Assembly (NCBI RefSeq): GCF_000517025.1
Contig: NZ_KI912097.1
Coordinates: 94,988 to 118,089, forward strand
Length of the DNA: 23,102 nucleotides
Source: Halonatronum saccharophilum DSM 13868
Lineage (GTDB): Bacteria; Bacillota; Halanaerobiia; Halobacteroidales; Halobacteroidaceae
Direction: 5' to 3'
A model generated the notes under the pieces. It was not told the DNA's origin, ran no database searches, and saw nothing but the letters and a program-made list of their open reading frames with translations. Shown here in pieces: positions 691 through 12,735 of this stretch (position 1 is its first letter; every line of letters begins with the position of its first letter). The position numbers were made by a program, and so were the translations under genes.

Positions 691-779
691 GAACGCCTTG
701 TGAAGTTGAAAACTTCATGCAGAGTGTGGAGCAGGGGAAAAGATGGAGATTACACCAAACTCTTACCTATTGCTATACA
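691..779 (+). repeat. Repeat module M, copy 2 (GAACGCC...TCTTACCTATTGCTATACA). Hairpin CCTTGTGAAG-TTGAAAA-CTTCATGCAGAG at 696-724.
   Basis: Same register as copy 1 at a 214-215 nt spacing. The conserved GGAGC(R)GGGGAAAAG(W)TGGAGAT core and the TCTTACCTAT tail are shared. Confidence 0.6.
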
Positions 780-1015
780 TATGAGCCTTGGTAGGAAGGT
801 AGAGATTACTTATATCAGAGTGTTTTGTTTTAACGAACGAGAGTGGTTTTATCGAAAGTAAGCTCAGACGCCCCACCAAGGTAAAAGCCAAAGCCTTGTA
901 GCACGAATGGCAACGCGAAGACAAATCGAAGTATTGAAGTCTACTGACAAAGGTATCTAAAGGATACCAAGGAAGTATGCAGACCGTAACACAAGTGAAC
1001 GCATAGTAGCTTCGA
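763..1015 (+). repeat. Repeat module N, copy 1 (TTACC...GAACGCATA). Non-coding, hairpin-rich, candidate structured RNA.
   Basis: Aligns with 4177-4442. Long identical blocks are shared (TTTTAACGAACGAGA-TGGTTTTATCGAAAGTAAGCTCAGACG, GCCTTGTAGCAC, TTGACAAAGGTATCTAAAGGATACCA, AAGTATGCAGACCGTAACAC). Perfect hairpin GGTATC-TAAAG-GATACC at 952-968. No RBS-led ORF. Confidence 0.6.
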
Positions 1016-1155
1016 AAGGGCCAACATTTGGCGCTCGAGCCTTTAGTGTCTGGGCGGGGACTGGGGGTTTAACTTAGCTAATGTGTTGAGCGTTGGAGCT
1101 ACAGACTAAATCGCAAGTGATTGTATTATTTATTGAGGAGGTTTTAAATTTTAAA

Positions 1156-2157
1156 ATGAATATAGAATATTTAATTGAACAGAAAGTAGGAATAATTAAT
1201 ACTAATAACAATCCTGTAAATTTTAATGGTACAATAGAAGAAATAGTTGATTTAGGTTATGATGTAATTGTTACATTTGCCGATTATGATTTTTCTTTAA
1301 GTTGGAAAGCAGGAGAAAATCCATCTATTAGACATTATAGTTGTGGATTAGGTGAATATCCTATACCTAGCAAATGGGAGTTAAAACATTTTAATGAATA
1401 TATACTATATGAATTATATTATGATAGAAAAGTTATATTATGGTTTAAAGATGATGTAACAAAAGAGAAAGTAGTAGCTTCTATTTTAAATTTTTTTAAA
1501 GATGAACATAAAAAATTTAAAGAAGTTATTGAGACAAAACTTTCTACACAAAAAAATAGAGTAAAGGACATTCCAATCAAATTAACTCATTGTACTGCTT
1601 GTATTGAAGAAGGCTGTATGACAGAATATGTTTGCCATATTACAAGTGTAGAGAACGCTATAAAGATAATAAAAGATGGTAAAATCTGTTCTTCTGCTAA
1701 GGTTAAAGGCATTGATGGTCAAGAATTAGCTATGGAAAAAAGTAATGTTCCAGGAGATCCATCAGATTACTTTGACTATGTAATGTTTGGTTTTGGTAAT
1801 TGTCAAGCGGGAGACCGATTAGTGATAGAAAGAAGATTAGGAAAATTTCCAGAAAAGGAAGATTTAAATGAAAAATTTATTCCTGGGGTAAGATTTTATT
1901 TCAAATATAAAGATTTGATTAAACATTCAGGTTATATTTCAGATGGATATCATTATTTAAAGATAAAAGATTCTATTGATATTTTGCCTAACTTAGCGGC
2001 TATAGCAACATCTGAAAATTTTAAAGATGTTTTAATGGGAAATATTCCAAGTGAAATGCATAAGTATTTTGTTTTTTTAGATCATAGCAAATATGATATT
2101 TGGACTTGGTCACATAATATATATGAAAAAGTTAAAAGAATAGATAAGAGAAAGTAA
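1156..2157 (+). CDS. Hypothetical 333-aa protein. The C-terminal half carries DarT/DUF4433-like ADP-ribosyltransferase motifs (HITSVENAIKIIKDGKI, DYFDYVMFGF). The N-terminal ~165 aa are an unknown domain.
   Basis: Long ORF in the six-frame track. ATG at 1156 is preceded by GAGGAGG at 1135-1141 (long 14-nt spacer). The upstream in-frame TTG at 1093 lacks an RBS. Motif similarity to DarT is recalled from memory, not searched. Confidence 0.6.
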   Translation: MNIEYLIEQKVGIINTNNNPVNFNGTIEEIVDLGYDVIVTFADYDFSLSWKAGENPSIRHYSCGLGEYPIPSKWELKHFNEYILYELYYDRKVILWFKDDVTKEKVVASILNFFKDEHKKFKEVIETKLSTQKNRVKDIPIKLTHCTACIEEGCMTEYVCHITSVENAIKIIKDGKICSSAKVKGIDGQELAMEKSNVPGDPSDYFDYVMFGFGNCQAGDRLVIERRLGKFPEKEDLNEKFIPGVRFYFKYKDLIKHSGYISDGYHYLKIKDSIDILPNLAAIATSENFKDVLMGNIPSEMHKYFVFLDHSKYDIWTWSHNIYEKVKRIDKRK

Positions 2158-2700
2158 ATACGACTTCGTCTAACATAGGCTTAGCGGTGCGTCCTATCAG
2201 GGTATATATTCTAGTGAGTGTAAATCTCATCAGAGTAAAGGTTAGCCAGCAGCTCTGTATCGAGTCTTGGAGGTGTTATGGTAACATAACACTTTAAGCG
2301 TAGACAGAAAGTTAGCAAGGTAGAATCGACTGGATACGGTTTTTGTGGTTTTCACGGAGAGTCCGAGAGGACTCGTAGGGATTGGTTTGCCAGCGGTGAA
2401 CTGTATTGAGCTCCGAAAACCGTGTAAATGAGAAGGGTCGAAGCTGTCGCTAAAGTGGAAGACAGTAACTACTTATGCATAAAAGGCGAGCATAAGTAAT
2501 CATCTCCGGAGTCTAAGGCACTACCTCGCTAAACATCAAGAATATATAGAAACCTAGGGAGGTCCTATTAGGTCTTTCCGCAAGGAGAGTATGTCTGATG
2601 AGCTGAAGAGGTAAAGAAGACAAACGCCAATAGGAAGTCGGATACTCTCATAGTACCAAAGAAACTGGGTAACTCTAGTGGAGGGAAGGAGTAGTAACAG

Positions 2701-4062
2701 ATGAAACTGCAAGCAAGGGACACATCTATCGGACACAGAACCGAAGAAAGGGTGAGAACAAAACTTGCTCGCATAGCACAAAGAGCGAAGAAAGATAAAG
2801 AGGTAAGATTCTGCTCTCTAAGTCATCTACTCTATAAAAGCACGCTGATAGAAGCATTTTGGAGACTATCTCCAAAAGCAGCACCAGGGGTAGATAAAGA
2901 AACTAAGAATAGCTATGCAGAAAATCTAGAAGAAAATATTAAGGATTTGAACAGTAGACTTAAAAGCAACTCATTTAAACCTAATCCAGTAAGAAGGAAA
3001 TATATAAAGAAGACTGATAGTGGTAAAATGAGACCTCTTGGCATACCAGCACTAGAAGATAAGGTAGTGCAAACAGCCTTAGTAATAATAATGGAAAATA
3101 TATATGAACAAGACTTTCTACCATTCTCTTATGGGTTTCGCCCTAACAGGAACTGTCATGAAGCTTTGAAGAATCTAAGTAAAGATATAGGAACAAAGAA
3201 GGTGAACTATGTAGTAGACGCAGATATCAAAGGATTCTTTGATAATGTAAGCCATGAATGGATGATGAAGTTTCTACAACATAGAATAAATGACACCAAA
3301 ATATTAAGATTAATCAAAAGATTCTTAAAAGCAGGAGTGATAGAAGAAGGCAAATATTATAAAAGTAAAAGTGGAGTACCACAAGGAGGAACACTATCTC
3401 CTTTATTAGCAAACATCTACCTTCACTATACAATAGACCTATGGTTTGAAAAGGTAGTGACTAAGTATTGTAAAGGGGAAGCATATATGACAAGGTATGC
3501 TGATGATATAGTATTTTGCTTTCAATACAAAAGAGATGTAGAAAGGTTTTATAGAGCATTGAAAGGAAGACTTAATAAATTTAATCTAAAACTATCAGAA
3601 GAAAAGACCAAAGTAATAGAGTTTGGAAGATTCGCTCAAAGAGATGCCAAAAGGAGAGGTAAGAATAAAGCAGAAACCTTTGATTTTCTGGGATTCACCC
3701 ATTATTGTGGGAAAAGTAGAAGAGGAAAATTTAAAATCAAATGGAAGACATCAAGAAAGAAATTCAAGGCAAAGATAAATGAATTCTCTAGATGGATAAA
3801 AGAGAATAGACATCTTCCAATAAACGAAATATGGAGAAAGGTAACCCAGAAGATAAAAGGACATTTCCAATACTATGGAGTAAGCGATAATTGGAAATGG
3901 CTAGAGAAATATAAAACAGAAGTGATAAATCTACTGTACAAAGGGCTTAATAGAAGAAGCCAACGAAATAGTATGAAGTGGGATAAATTAAGAAGATTAA
4001 CCGAAGTATTCCCATTGCCAGAACCAAAGATCAGAGTGAATCTTAACTCCGCTTTTGTGTAA
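2701..4062 (+). CDS. ltrA-like: Group II intron reverse transcriptase/maturase (RT domains 0-7 plus domain X; no HNH endonuclease domain).
   Basis: Hallmark group II RT blocks are present: RPLGIPALEDKVVQTA, FSYGFRPNRNCHEAL, VVDADIKGFFDNVSHE and the YADD catalytic box in TRYADDIVFCF. The maturase-like C-terminus (GHFQYYGVSDNWKWL) has no Cys/His-rich En domain. RBS GGAGGGAAGGAG lies upstream of the ATG. Confidence 0.92.
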   Translation: MKLQARDTSIGHRTEERVRTKLARIAQRAKKDKEVRFCSLSHLLYKSTLIEAFWRLSPKAAPGVDKETKNSYAENLEENIKDLNSRLKSNSFKPNPVRRKYIKKTDSGKMRPLGIPALEDKVVQTALVIIMENIYEQDFLPFSYGFRPNRNCHEALKNLSKDIGTKKVNYVVDADIKGFFDNVSHEWMMKFLQHRINDTKILRLIKRFLKAGVIEEGKYYKSKSGVPQGGTLSPLLANIYLHYTIDLWFEKVVTKYCKGEAYMTRYADDIVFCFQYKRDVERFYRALKGRLNKFNLKLSEEKTKVIEFGRFAQRDAKRRGKNKAETFDFLGFTHYCGKSRRGKFKIKWKTSRKKFKAKINEFSRWIKENRHLPINEIWRKVTQKIKGHFQYYGVSDNWKWLEKYKTEVINLLYKGLNRRSQRNSMKWDKLRRLTEVFPLPEPKIRVNLNSAFV

Positions 4063-4077
4063 AGAGGATCATCTGGG

Positions 4078-4110
4078 GAGCCGTATGCCTAAATTGGGCA
4101 CGTACGGTTC
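4078..4110 (+). other. Group II intron domain V (catalytic hairpin).
   Basis: 34-nt hairpin matching the domain V consensus (GAGCCGUAUG...CACGUACGGUUC), 16 nt after the intron-encoded protein's stop codon. Confidence 0.85.
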
Positions 4111-4176
4111 TGAGAGGGGTATACGCCAACTATACAAGAAAAGATTAACCCTTAAGCAGAAGGCGTATATATCTAC

Positions 4177-4442
4177 TTACCAAATATGACCCTTAGTAAG
4201 AAGGTAGAGATGACTTATATCATATTGTATTTTTTTAACGAACGAGATTGGTTTTATCGAAAGTAAGCTCAGACGTCGCGAAGCCCAGGGATGTTGTATG
4301 TCCAGCGAAGCTGGACATATCCAATGGGCCAACGCCTTGTAGCACCAATGACAATTTAAAGATAAAAATATTGAAGTTCATTGACAAAGGTATCTAAAGG
4401 ATACCAGGCAAGTATGCAGACCGTAACACCGTGAGCGCATAA
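4177..4442 (+). repeat. Repeat module N, copy 2. It begins exactly at the intron 3' junction and carries an extra perfect hairpin ATGTCCAGC-GAA-GCTGGACAT (4298-4318) that copy 1 lacks.
   Basis: Aligns with 763-1015 (see that entry). Perfect hairpin GGTATC-TAAAG-GATACC at 4389-4405. Ends 17 nt before the stop of the convergent minus-strand gene. Confidence 0.6.
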
Positions 4443-10090: not shown

Positions 10091-10576
10091 TTGAAAATTA
10101 AATCATATACATTATTAATGATCTTGTTTATAAATCTATCTACTCTTCCTGTTTGGGGCCAAGGTGTTTTAAGTTCTGTTAAGAGTAAACCTAATAATTT
10201 GGTAATCTATCACCCTAATAATTGGTCAAATATTGGAGTATGGGATTTTTCAGATAGAGAAATTTTTGAAGGAATGGTTATTAAAGAAATTAATCTAAAG
10301 TGGAATGATAGTAGCTCACAGAACCAAAGTTATAGAGGCTTACATATTGCCTTATTTAATGAAGAAGGTAAAGGCGTTTTACTAAGCGAACAATTTATCA
10401 GAGGAAAAGTAAATACAGATTTCTTTAAAGATCAAGATCCTGCCCAAAGGTGGGAGGTTAAATACTATGTGGAGGACCTTCAAAGAGCAGGAAATTACTT
10501 TTCAATTTCACCTAGAATTAGTATAAATTATCAAAGAGCTAAAGATGAGGATGAGGAGGAGGAGGAGGAGTTATGA
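10091..10576 (+). CDS. Secreted hypothetical protein with a C-terminal poly-Glu tail (TTG start).
   Basis: AGGAGGGA RBS 9 nt before the TTG. Signal peptide KIKSYTLLMILFINLSTLPVWG. The stop overlaps the next start (ATGA), indicating translational coupling. Confidence 0.65.
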   Translation: MKIKSYTLLMILFINLSTLPVWGQGVLSSVKSKPNNLVIYHPNNWSNIGVWDFSDREIFEGMVIKEINLKWNDSSSQNQSYRGLHIALFNEEGKGVLLSEQFIRGKVNTDFFKDQDPAQRWEVKYYVEDLQRAGNYFSISPRISINYQRAKDEDEEEEEEL

Positions 10577-12735
10577 AATCAAAAGAAAATTTAATCTTTG
10601 CATTAGATATTGGAACTAGAACTGTAGTAGGAGCTTTATTAGAAAAGGTAGGTGATAATCTAATACTGAGATATTCAAAGGTAGTTGAACATAAAAACAG
10701 ATCAATGTTAGATGGTCAAATACATAATATCGGTGAGGTTGCCAAGCAAGTAAAGATAATCAAAGAAAGTTTAGAAGAAAAGGCAGGCGTTGAATTAAAT
10801 AAAGTAGGTATTGCAGCCGCAGGTCGGGCTTTAAAAACATTAACCGGTCACCATCAAATAGACTTTGATAACAAAAAAGAGATAAATGAGGATGATATAA
10901 AGCTTTTAGAATTTACTGCAATTCAAGATGCTCAAAAAAAGCTTTCTACAGGAGAGGATAAAGATAAAGCTAGCGGTTATCACTTTGTAGGTTATACACC
11001 TGTACAAACATTATTAGATGGAATTAGAGTAGGAAGTTTATTAAGTCAAAGTGGCAAAAAAATCGAAATAGATATAATAGCCACCTTCCTGCCAAGAATT
11101 GTTGTAGATTCTTTATTGACAGTTATTAGACAAGCTGATTTAGAGGTTAACCATTTAACTTTAGAGCCAATTGCTGCAGCTAATGTAATAGTTCCTCAGC
11201 AGATGTATAACTTCAACTTAGCTTTGGTAGATATAGGAGCAGGAACCTCTGATATCGCTATTACTAGAGATGGATCTATAATTGGTTATGATATGGTACC
11301 TGTGGCAGGAGATGAAATGACAGAAGCTATCTGTGAAGCTTATATGGTAGATTATAATACTGCTGAGAGTATTAAAAGAAAACTAGTTGAAGAAGAAGAG
11401 GTAGAAATGAAAGATATCTTAGATCAGAAGGTCAAAATTCCTACTGATCAAATAATAAAGAGTATAGAAAATAAGGTAGAGGAGTTGGCCCGATTAATTG
11501 GTGATTCAATTTTAGAACTAAACGGGAAGAAACCTCAGGCCGTTATCTGTATTGGAGGAGGGAGTTTAACACCTCTATTAAAGGAAAAATTAGCCTCTAA
11601 ATTAAATCTCCCTATTAATAGAGTAGGTATTAAAGACGGAGAAGAAATTAAGGGCATTGAAGGTAAGATCAAAAACATCAGTGGGACTCAATCCATAACT
11701 CCTTTTGGTATAGCTGTAAGTTCAATGAAGAATAAAAGCAGAGCTAACTTCACAAATATAACCCTCAATGGAGACAAACTTCATTTATTCACATTAACAA
11801 ATCCAAAGGTCTCTGATGCCTTACTTGCTGGAGAAGTTGAAATTAATGCACTCAAAGCAAGACCAGGCTTAGCTATAACAGCAGAAGTTAATGGACAGTT
11901 AAAGATAATTAGAGGTACCTTAGGAGAAAGTGGGCAGGTATTAGTTAATGGGGAAGAGAAAGGAATTGATGAGATAATAAAAGAAGGAGATAGAATCGAA
12001 GTAAAGCTTGGTTCTAAAGGAGAAAATGGAACAGGCAAAATAAAGGATATCGTCAGTGACCTACCAAGTCGTGATATAATTATAAATGGTCAGAAAGAAA
12101 CAATTGCTCCAATCTATTATAGAAATGGCAATTTAGCTAGCTTAGAAGAGGAAATTTCAGATGGAGATAAGATAGAATATAGGGTGATCCAATCAATAAG
12201 AGAGGTAATTGAAGATGTTTTAGGCATCTCTCTTAGAGGTTTAAAAGAGAGAAAGTTATCCTACTCCTTAAATGGTGAAAATAAGATATATAGAATGAAG
12301 GCATATGATCTTAAGATTAATAATAAAGAAGTTACTCTAGACTATGAAGTAGAAGAAGGCGACAAGGTAACCTTCAAGAGATTAGAACAGATTGAAGTAA
12401 AGATAAAGGATATTTTAGGTGAAGATAAAATTGGAAGTGAGATAAATATAAGTTTTAATGATAGGGCTTTAAGAGTTCCAAGTAAGGATTTTAAAGTCTT
12501 TAAAAATGGTCAAAAGGCTAGTATAGAGGATTTTATAAGTAATGGTGATAAGATTGAATTAGAAGGTGAAGGGATAAGGTTAAACCAACTTTTAGATCAT
12601 ATTAATTATCAAATTCCTACTACTTTAGGTGGAAAATTAGTAATTGAGAAAAACGGAGAGAAGGCTCAACTGACTGAGCCTTTAAAAGATGGAGATAGAG
12701 TAAAGCTCAATATAGAATATTTTAAGGAGTATTAG
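10573..12735 (+). CDS. Actin-fold ATPase of the FtsA/PilM family (N-terminal ~380 aa) fused to about six C-terminal ~50-70-aa repeats with an NG(E/Q)K...(D/E)GD(K/R)(I/V)E motif.
   Basis: Phosphate-1 LDIGTRTVVGA, phosphate-2 LVDIGAGTSDIAI, adenosine motif ICIGGGSLTP. Repeat motifs VNGEEK..EGDRIEV, INGQKE..DGDKIEY, LNGENK..EGDKVTF, KNGQKA..NGDKIEL, KNGEKA..DGDRVKL. Confidence 0.7.
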   Translation: MKSKENLIFALDIGTRTVVGALLEKVGDNLILRYSKVVEHKNRSMLDGQIHNIGEVAKQVKIIKESLEEKAGVELNKVGIAAAGRALKTLTGHHQIDFDNKKEINEDDIKLLEFTAIQDAQKKLSTGEDKDKASGYHFVGYTPVQTLLDGIRVGSLLSQSGKKIEIDIIATFLPRIVVDSLLTVIRQADLEVNHLTLEPIAAANVIVPQQMYNFNLALVDIGAGTSDIAITRDGSIIGYDMVPVAGDEMTEAICEAYMVDYNTAESIKRKLVEEEEVEMKDILDQKVKIPTDQIIKSIENKVEELARLIGDSILELNGKKPQAVICIGGGSLTPLLKEKLASKLNLPINRVGIKDGEEIKGIEGKIKNISGTQSITPFGIAVSSMKNKSRANFTNITLNGDKLHLFTLTNPKVSDALLAGEVEINALKARPGLAITAEVNGQLKIIRGTLGESGQVLVNGEEKGIDEIIKEGDRIEVKLGSKGENGTGKIKDIVSDLPSRDIIINGQKETIAPIYYRNGNLASLEEEISDGDKIEYRVIQSIREVIEDVLGISLRGLKERKLSYSLNGENKIYRMKAYDLKINNKEVTLDYEVEEGDKVTFKRLEQIEVKIKDILGEDKIGSEINISFNDRALRVPSKDFKVFKNGQKASIEDFISNGDKIELEGEGIRLNQLLDHINYQIPTTLGGKLVIEKNGEKAQLTEPLKDGDRVKLNIEYFKEY

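Follow-up and report, generated by a model that had tools for sequence, protein, structure and literature searches.

The stretch analysed here, a window of 23,102 nucleotides from the bacterium Halonatronum saccharophilum DSM 13868, carries a gene for a 333-residue two-domain protein whose C-terminal ~180 residues form an ADP-ribosyltransferase (ART) fold closest to that of DarT, keeping its motif I and, by hhalign, an aromatic F-Y-F strand and a basic NAD-loop residue. The protein belongs to a previously unannotated family, which is chromosomal, solo and widespread; in the ART clade of H-Y-E descent (DarT, Tpt1/KptA) it stands as a distant sister to DarT. The explanation that we tentatively prefer, giving it a little less than an even chance, is a solo, two-domain, non-toxic NAD+-using enzyme of ART fold that would work without the DarT glutamate and whose acceptor would most likely be a small molecule. 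An earlier note, made from the sequence alone, had described the gene as an orphan DarT-like toxin fused to an unknown N-terminal domain. The DarT-like fold, motif I, the extra N-terminal domain and the missing DarG partner all stand, whereas membership of DarT proper, the catalytic glutamate and the toxin role do not.

An ADP-ribosyltransferase domain closest to DarT

AlphaFold2 modelling with the family alignment gave a predicted local distance difference test score (pLDDT) of 95.0 and a predicted template modelling score of 0.91 for the full-length protein, and a pLDDT of 95.5 for the C-terminal domain alone. A Foldseek search of the PDB returned no significant match, and its list mixed dual-specificity phosphatases (DUSPs) with DarT. 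The structure list for the C-terminal domain is headed by the DarTs of M. tuberculosis (7yk3_C, 10.2), E. coli C7 (DarT1; 8baq_A, 9.7) and Thermus (7omv, 9.6) and by Thermosipho DarTG (7omu, 9.4), followed by yeast Tpt1 (7yw4, 8.6) and the Caulobacter hypothetical protein CC0527 (2jqn, 6.7). Lower in this list stand further Tpt1/KptA structures, OspC3, a Salmonella NAD-binding effector, heat-labile enterotoxin, pertussis toxin, PARPs and scabin. With no phosphatase left in it, this list assigns the C-terminal domain to the ART fold, with DarT as its nearest neighbour, and leaves the similarity to protein tyrosine phosphatases (PTPs) to residues 1-137. The domain possesses the split beta-sheet core and the NAD+-binding beta-alpha-loop-beta-alpha unit of the ART superfamily, and its closest folds are DarT structures.

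The Pfam DarT profile (PF14487) aligns its positions 1-37 of 201 with residues 160-194 of the protein at 15.3 bits (E=0.016), below the threshold of 22.5 bits. When 50 family members were scanned singly, DarT was matched at E<=1 by one of the 50, the window protein itself, and by none of ten divergent members; by contrast, PF14487 was present in all of the 120 listed relatives of a genuine DarT. Judged by curated sequence criteria, the window protein is not a DarT. Searches of PDB sequences with phmmer and hmmsearch, using the protein or a close-knit 50-member alignment, yielded noise only (NifU, RRM), and a diverse family profile placed Thermus DarT (7omv) on top without significance (E=0.35).

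Profile-profile comparison with hhalign reached further. A shallow family alignment (effective number of sequences, Neff, 2.7) aligned with DarT over motif I alone, at 33-45% probability. With divergent members added (Neff ~5) the alignment covered 94 columns at 84% probability (E=7.5e-6), and a second run gave 74% over 95 columns (E=2.8e-5; query 157-277, DarT 5-106). For the DarT set, plasmids were searched by tblastn with a 25-residue motif-I consensus as bait, and genes bearing the annotation DarT or DUF4433 were recovered. The Meiothermus DarT, used as a further query, returned thousands of PF14487 proteins, and a 26-sequence DarT alignment in Meiothermus numbering was used. In it H9, T11, N15, F71 and E165 are invariant, and R50, S27, N125 and K162 nearly so.

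Conserved residues and the catalytic glutamate

In motif I, hhalign pairs H161 with DarT H9, T163 with T11, N167 with N15 and S179 with S27. Both the His and the Thr that contact NAD+ are thus present, and H161 is kept in 94% of 50 diverse members, the sample to which the conservation figures below refer. The corresponding residues of DarT1, H17 and T19, contact the NAD+ ribose (PMC11543638), and by analogy motif I is predicted to be the beta-alpha-beta element that binds the ADP moiety of NAD+. The first peptide block that had been likened to DarT (YVCHITSVENAIKIIKDGKICS, residues 158-179) therefore corresponds to motif I beyond chance (Pfam E=0.016; hhalign E=2.8e-5 to 7.5e-6). In a few family members, such as the divergent P0166 and P0170, H161 is replaced by Tyr or Phe with the rest of the domain kept; they may be inactive paralogs or may bind the cofactor in an altered manner.

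The second block (DYFDYVMFGFGN) is strongly conserved within the family (D204 acidic in 100%, P202 in 94%, Y208 in 90%, D or E at 201), but its proposed equivalence to the D-Y-V-P-F-Y-F segment of DarT is doubtful. Residues ~189-215, the block included, are treated by hhalign as a family-specific insertion, and V245-R-F-Y248-F249 is set instead against DarT V67-P-F-Y70-F71, with R226/R227 opposite R49/R50. A weak local HMMER alignment favours the earlier register: it equates the family's E-K-R-N (194-197) with E50-R51-R52-N53 of Thermus 7omv, although the window protein itself has Ser at 196. Under the hhalign register R226/R227 face the NAD-loop Arg of DarT (R51 in Thermus), position 226 being basic in 80-86%, and F249, aromatic in 98%, faces the invariant F71; R246 is also well conserved. 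The catalytic Arg of the DarT NAD-loop is R51 in Thermus DarT2 and R52 in DarT1, and Y71 is the Tyr of the H-Y-E triad (PMC11543638, PMC5179494).

DarT further depends on a “single completely conserved glutamate”, E160 in Taq DarT and E152 in DarT1, whose mutation abolishes toxicity (PMC5179494, PMC11543638). In the family described here no column past residue 276 is a conserved Glu at the sequence level, the confident part of the hhalign alignment ending before the Glu region of DarT. Position 272 is acidic in 78% of members, 309 in 66% and 303 in 40%, position 300 is a mixture of K, N, E, R and D, and in the last 90 residues no strand is preceded by a conserved acid. The third block (SEMHKYFVFLDH), put forward as the catalytic-Glu region, is not supported in that role: residues 299-310 are not conserved, E300 is variable, and 309 is acidic in no more than 66%. 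The defining Glu of DarT thus appears to be missing from the family. E225, considered as a relocated catalytic Glu, was rejected, being invariant in the core group only and Ser, Ala or Gln in divergent members. Since no conserved Glu is found, the family, if catalytic, would use another acid or a Glu-independent chemistry, as Tpt1 does; the absence of a conserved catalytic Glu is a trait of Tpt1.

The best-conserved positions are H161, G175, S179, D/E201, P202, D204, Y208, D/E220, R226, R246, F249, D263, G264 and K269. So dense a set of conserved polar residues (H161, S179, D204, Y208, D/E220, R226, R246, D263 and K269) makes an active enzyme likely, and the D263-D272 loop and strand may supply catalytic or acceptor-binding residues.

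N-terminal domain and cysteine cluster

The first ~165 residues had been called unrecognisable, which holds for their sequence only; residues 1-137 make up a domain that is conserved throughout the family and has a PTP-like fold. Its structural matches include PTP-fold RNA 5'-phosphatases and capping-enzyme triphosphatases (1yn9, 2c46, 4mbb). The single Cys of this region, C62, is not followed by the X5-R of a CX5R P-loop, at the strand-helix junction neither Cys nor Arg is conserved in the family consensus, and no Pfam phosphatase matches. The domain is at most a catalytically dead PTP-like module. A consensus C-T-A-C-P-Y-R segment was considered as a PTP CX5R loop and rejected: the window protein and many members lack its Arg, and what the segment forms is the Cys knuckle ahead of strand beta-1. 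The most conserved residues of the domain are W74-E75, Y85-E86 and R91. Typical members have ~76 residues before the linker and the window subfamily ~137, by virtue of an N-terminal extension and two insertions; short-form relatives keep just ~76 residues of the domain.

Between the domains lies a cluster of four cysteines that leads into strand beta-1. It is invariant or nearly so in the core family, is kept by most divergent members and is lost in some, and probably constitutes a structural zinc site of the zinc-knuckle kind.

Size and distribution of the family

An exhaustive profile search recovered 519 cluster representatives (50% identity) at E<=1e-3 and 283 at E<=1e-10. Many of the 519 are fragments, and the remainder are long (310-345 residues) or short (~270 residues) forms. 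With an indexed search, 139 relatives came up at E<=1e-3, mostly proteins of ~270 residues without a Pfam domain from Clostridia-rich metagenomes. Among species-representative genomes, complete chromosomes included, the family occurs in at least 294, as judged by the 294 positive stretches. The hosts are mostly gut and rumen Clostridia, chiefly Lachnospiraceae, Oscillospiraceae, Clostridium, Ruminococcus and Sellimonas, with further occurrences in Treponema, metagenome-assembled genomes (MAGs) of Actinomycetota, Anaeroplasmatales and Halolactibacillus. The gene is therefore no one-off orphan DarT but one of a distinct family that fails the Pfam DarT threshold, and among 150 listed matches of the exhaustive search none lay outside the family or bridged it to DarT.

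The window protein had no match in NCBIfam, in the anti-phage defence models of PADLOC or in the phage families of PHROGs. No account of the family was found in Pfam, NCBIfam, PADLOC or PHROGs, and in the papers searched “DarT-like” is used loosely, for exotoxins. The records of a few homologs, P0029 and P0056 among them, are titled “phosphate ABC transporter ATPase”, a name to which sequence and fold give no support and which has probably spread between records as a misannotation. The family is acidic: its median isoelectric point (pI) is 5.8, as against 7.5 for the DarT set, and its net charge is -2.1 per 100 residues.

Genomic contexts of the homologs and fusions

When open reading frames (ORFs) within three positions of the gene were clustered across 80 genome loci, no family occurred in more than five of them. 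In a bulk Pfam scan of 137 adjacent ORFs the 25 commonest families did not include a macrodomain, NADAR or ARH. At least 18 of these immediate neighbours (13%) were GNATs, against a general background of ~1-2%. Nine homolog contexts annotated with Pfam were heterogeneous and likewise free of macrodomain, NADAR and ARH genes. Two were dense GNAT arrays with APH, Antibiotic_NAT, amidase, deaminase and HD genes; the others contained PhzF, TetR, a two-component system with VanY, the Suf operon, a tRNA methyltransferase, or GmrSD with a UvrD helicase, among other genes. Asparaginase and tRNA synthetase are also found among the ordinary neighbours. The earlier note had itself named the company of housekeeping genes as an argument against its toxin or defence role, and this is what the homologs show: they lie beside ordinary genes, with no conserved neighbour, antitoxin or defence system.

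In the context of homolog P0030 (L001 1-16816, L002), from a Clostridia MAG, more than 20 small genes lie on the same strand, seven of them GNATs, together with glyoxalase, His_Phos, amidase, deaminase-like, HD, DSBA, cupin and Antibiotic_NAT genes. The array, which stops at a tyrosine recombinase gene in convergent orientation, has the look of a cassette array whose genes are of modification or resistance type. Two homologs were called as fusions, P0022 (437 residues) with a C-terminal GNAT (PF13302/PF00583) and P0051 (573 residues) with a C-terminal APH (PF01636).

As a control, canonical plasmid DarTs were inspected, and several had an adjacent macrodomain gene. At the plasmid loci L013, L014 and L015, canonical DarT genes follow immediately on the gene for a type I restriction subunit S, and in Nostoc the DarT is a 121-residue fragment adjoining a reverse-transcriptase (RT) gene. 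The association of DarTG with type I restriction-modification is published; the control loci agree with it, in contrast to the contexts of the family studied here.

The gene and its surroundings

The ORF, its coordinates and the peptide blocks quoted in the earlier note were all found in the sequence (Table 1). A longer frame, 1093-2157, opens with TTG; the ATG at 1156 yields 333 residues, and the closest homologs (50-77% identity, 323-336 residues) share this start position. The product is 100% identical to an NCBI entry for a 333-residue “hypothetical protein” of H. saccharophilum. A simple scan found no sigma-70-like promoter on the + strand upstream of the gene and no terminator downstream.

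Table 1. Positions of the gene, its predicted protein features and the group II intron elements in the window
Feature	Position	Strand	Basis or remark
CDS, 333-residue two-domain protein	1156..2157	+	ORF list; stop codon within range
Shine-Dalgarno-like GAGGAGG	1136..1142	+	Read from sequence; 13 nt 5' of ATG 1156
N-terminal domain, residues 1-137, family-conserved, PTP/DUSP-like fold without CX5R site	1156..1566	+	
Cys cluster C146-x2-C149-x4-C154-x5-C160, into strand beta-1	1591..1635	+	
ADP-ribosyltransferase-fold domain, ~residues 155-333	1618..2154	+	
DarT-type motif I, residues 157-179 EYVCHITSVENAIKIIKDGKICS (H161, T163, N167, G175, S179)	1624..1692	+	Pfam local match and hhalign
D201-P-S-D204-Y-F-D-Y208-V-M-F211 (second block)	1756..1788	+	Conservation, 50 diverse members
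Helix 218-228 (AGDRLVIERRL), D220 acidic in 96%, basic R226/R227	1807..1839	+	Model secondary structure and conservation
G244-V-R-F-Y248-F249 strand, hhalign counterpart of V-P-F-Y-F (Y of H-Y-E)	1885..1902	+	
D263-G264...K269-I-K271-D272 loop and strand	1942..1971	+	D263 98%, G264 98%, K269 88-90%, 272 acidic 78%
Two group II intron domain V/VI copies, upstream of gene	477-561, 691-776	+	Rfam RF00029, 62.6 and 41.1 bits
Group II intron 5' fragment, copy A	779..994	+	Rfam RF02003, 71.9 bits at 865-994
Complete group II intron, RT ORF 2701-4062	2221..4135	+	RF02005 130 bits (2221-2521), RF00029 (4076-4135)
Group II intron 5' fragment, copy B	4184..4431	+	Rfam RF02003, 50.3 bits

The gene is embedded in group II intron material. 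The two domain V/VI copies upstream are 79% identical and represent intron 3' ends; with their trailing sequence they form tandem copies (489-561/704-776 and 281-306/562-587, 79-85% identical), indicating intron 3' ends stacked upstream of the gene. A complete intron, whose RT ORF matches RVT_1 (E=2e-40), begins ~60 nt past the stop codon. The 5' fragments A and B, both matching Rfam group-II-D1D4-4, are direct repeats of ~215-250 nt with ~90% identity that bracket the ART gene and the complete intron, and each starts just past an intron 3' end (691-776; 4076-4135). This layout may reflect introns that homed repeatedly into other introns, or a composite prone to recombination. The only other assembly of the genome is broken at the intron repeats. 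The ART gene was also considered as domain IV cargo of an intron and rejected, for what comes after it is a complete intron of a different kind and a further 5' fragment, with no matching domain V/VI. The flanking RNA elements are remains of mobile elements that do not accompany homologs elsewhere, and they do not constitute a riboregulator dedicated to the gene. What the earlier note took for structured RNA repeats with a possible controlling function is thus intron debris, which also occurs downstream of the gene and bears no regulatory sign.

No macrodomain is encoded anywhere in the window, which extends the absence noted beside the gene. The other products have ordinary functions and include a SIMPL-like protein, a ferredoxin-type membrane protein, an M19 dipeptidase, a pullulanase-type amylase, MATE pumps, ECF S-components, an AIR-synthase-related protein, a PP-loop ATPase, an HD domain protein and SPFH. 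An ORF of 720 residues (10573-12735, +) has an unusual architecture that combines an FtsA/MreB/PilM-type actin-fold ATPase region with beta-grasp matches (ThiS, TGS, Ub-Mut7C); its start is overlapped by a 161-residue ORF (10091-10576) without a Pfam match.

Possible functions

In the preferred explanation the protein would bind NAD+ and transfer ADP-ribose to an acceptor without the catalytic Glu of DarT, other conserved acids (D204, D220, D263) may replace that Glu, and the N-terminal domain would help to recognise the acceptor. The acceptor would most likely be a small molecule, whether an antibiotic, a xenobiotic or a metabolite, as for Arr, the rifampin ADP-ribosyltransferase. The missing antitoxin, the ordinary neighbours, the acidity and the hundreds of genomes that carry the gene alone make a benign modifying enzyme more likely than a self-poisoning DNA toxin. 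The lean towards a small molecule comes from the GNAT excess, the rare GNAT and APH fusions, the acidity of the family and the analogy with Arr, and the evidence for it is weak. Several points weigh against the explanation as a whole. NAD+ binding is predicted solely from the fold and motif I, and the putative catalytic residues are placed by sequence alignment, for which hhalign and HMMER offer two competing registers. The apparent GNAT excess argues by association alone, and with a superfamily that is heterogeneous and very abundant; many contexts lack any resistance-like gene. Each fusion is one metagenomic gene call with a Met at or just past the junction and may be an assembly or lost-stop artefact. 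It is intriguing to imagine a new Glu-less branch of the DarT/Tpt1 clade, with a PTP-like recognition domain of its own, that confers resistance or detoxifies by ADP-ribosylating a small molecule (an antibiotic, a toxin or a xenobiotic) in gut and rumen Clostridia. It would be a second class of small-molecule ART after Arr, concealed in GNAT and APH arrays of resistance type, though this more specific proposal is unlikely.

The main rival is a nucleic-acid modifying or repair enzyme like Tpt1/KptA that would place ADP-ribose on a terminal or 2' phosphate, or on a base, of RNA or DNA; it, too, appears unlikely, albeit not negligibly so. Such an enzyme would not need the catalytic Glu, whose conserved form is absent in Tpt1 as well, and the Cys-less PTP-like domain together with the zinc knuckle would hold the phosphorylated end. 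The closest relatives all act on nucleic acids, the N-terminal domain resembles the RNA 5'-phosphatases and capping-enzyme triphosphatases named above, and some homologs adjoin tRNA U5-methyltransferase, UvrD-type helicase, GmrSD or UDG genes. This association is sporadic, however, the family is acidic, the PTP-like domain lacks the phosphate-binding CX5R loop, and there is neither a Pfam Tpt1 match nor an N-lobe of the Tpt1 type. An orphan DarT-like toxin or defence effector that modifies single-stranded DNA and is restrained in cis by the N-terminal domain or the upstream RNA, as the earlier note had it, is least consistent with the context data and distinctly improbable. Motif I and the nearest fold are shared with DarT, the gene sits inside mobile-element debris, one homolog context holds GmrSD and helicase genes, and natural DarT-DarG fusions (7omu) set a precedent for control in cis. 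Yet the invariant Glu has no equivalent, the Pfam DarT threshold is missed and a single one of 50 members matches at all; there is no PADLOC match, no antitoxin-type neighbour in the 80 loci, and most genes nearby are ordinary or metabolic. The fold of the N-terminal domain, which lacks catalytic residues, is PTP-like and neither macro nor NADAR, while the upstream RNA consists of intron fragments that recur downstream and are missing at other homologs; the acidity of the family speaks in the same direction.

Slightly less probable still is a protein-targeting regulatory mono-ART like DraT, in which the N-terminal domain would recognise the target: an ART fold with conserved polar residues would suit it and the neighbouring GNATs could be protein acetyltransferases, but neither the R-S-E nor the H-Y-E triad is present, and no conserved partner or target gene lies nearby. 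A similarly small chance is given to a catalytically inactive ART-fold sensor or scaffold for NAD+ or ADP-ribose. The want of an identifiable catalytic Glu and the few members with Tyr or Phe for H161 would fit this, whereas the dense conserved polar set (D204, D220, R226, R246, D263, K269) is typical of an active site and the family is well conserved across phyla.

Significance and comparison with known systems

To our knowledge, DarT-type enzymes have so far been known only as toxins bound to an ADP-ribose-removing antitoxin. A large, conserved, partner-less sister family that has kept the NAD+-binding half-site, lost the catalytic Glu and gained a pseudo-phosphatase-like domain points to use of the DarT scaffold outside toxin-antitoxin systems; new here are a family of the ART superfamily that belongs to its DarT/Tpt1 part and is both solo and Glu-less, and its novel domain architecture. 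Assigning the acceptor would close an annotation gap in hundreds of genomes, including those of human and animal gut Clostridia. A drug or toxin as acceptor would mean a new resistance mechanism, and a nucleic-acid end would add a Tpt1-like activity. The case also corrects a plausible over-call: to lack DarG and have a DarT-like fold is not enough to make a protein an orphan toxin.

DarT is the toxin of DarTG systems and ADP-ribosylates thymidine (DarT2) or guanosine (DarT1) in single-stranded DNA. Compared with it, the family has in common motif I (H-x-T...N...G-x-L-S) and, by hhalign, the NAD-loop Arg and the x-F-Y-F strand, at a profile-profile probability of 74-84%. It differs in failing the gathering score, with 49 of 50 relatives unmatched, in having no counterpart of the invariant catalytic Glu, and in a ~25-residue NAD-loop insertion; the region after beta-4 has ~57 residues as opposed to ~107 in DarT. 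It also bears an extra N-terminal PTP-like domain and Cys cluster, lacks a DarG or NADAR partner, lies outside type I restriction-modification operons and is acidic. Tpt1/KptA finds no match at the sequence level. The N-terminal RNA-binding lobe of Tpt1 bears the catalytic Arg-His-Arg-Arg tetrad; in the family the N-terminal domain is PTP-like, no such lobe is present, the tetrad is not recognisable, and the one Pfam match is the weak one to DarT. From PTP and DUSP phosphatases, which concern the N-terminal domain alone, the protein is set apart by its lone C62, the missing CX5R P-loop and the lack of a Pfam phosphatase match. Arr is comparable by functional analogy only: it is solo and non-toxic, chromosomal or mobile, and detoxifies a small molecule, and the GNAT, APH and Antibiotic_NAT company of the family resembles the surroundings of resistance genes.

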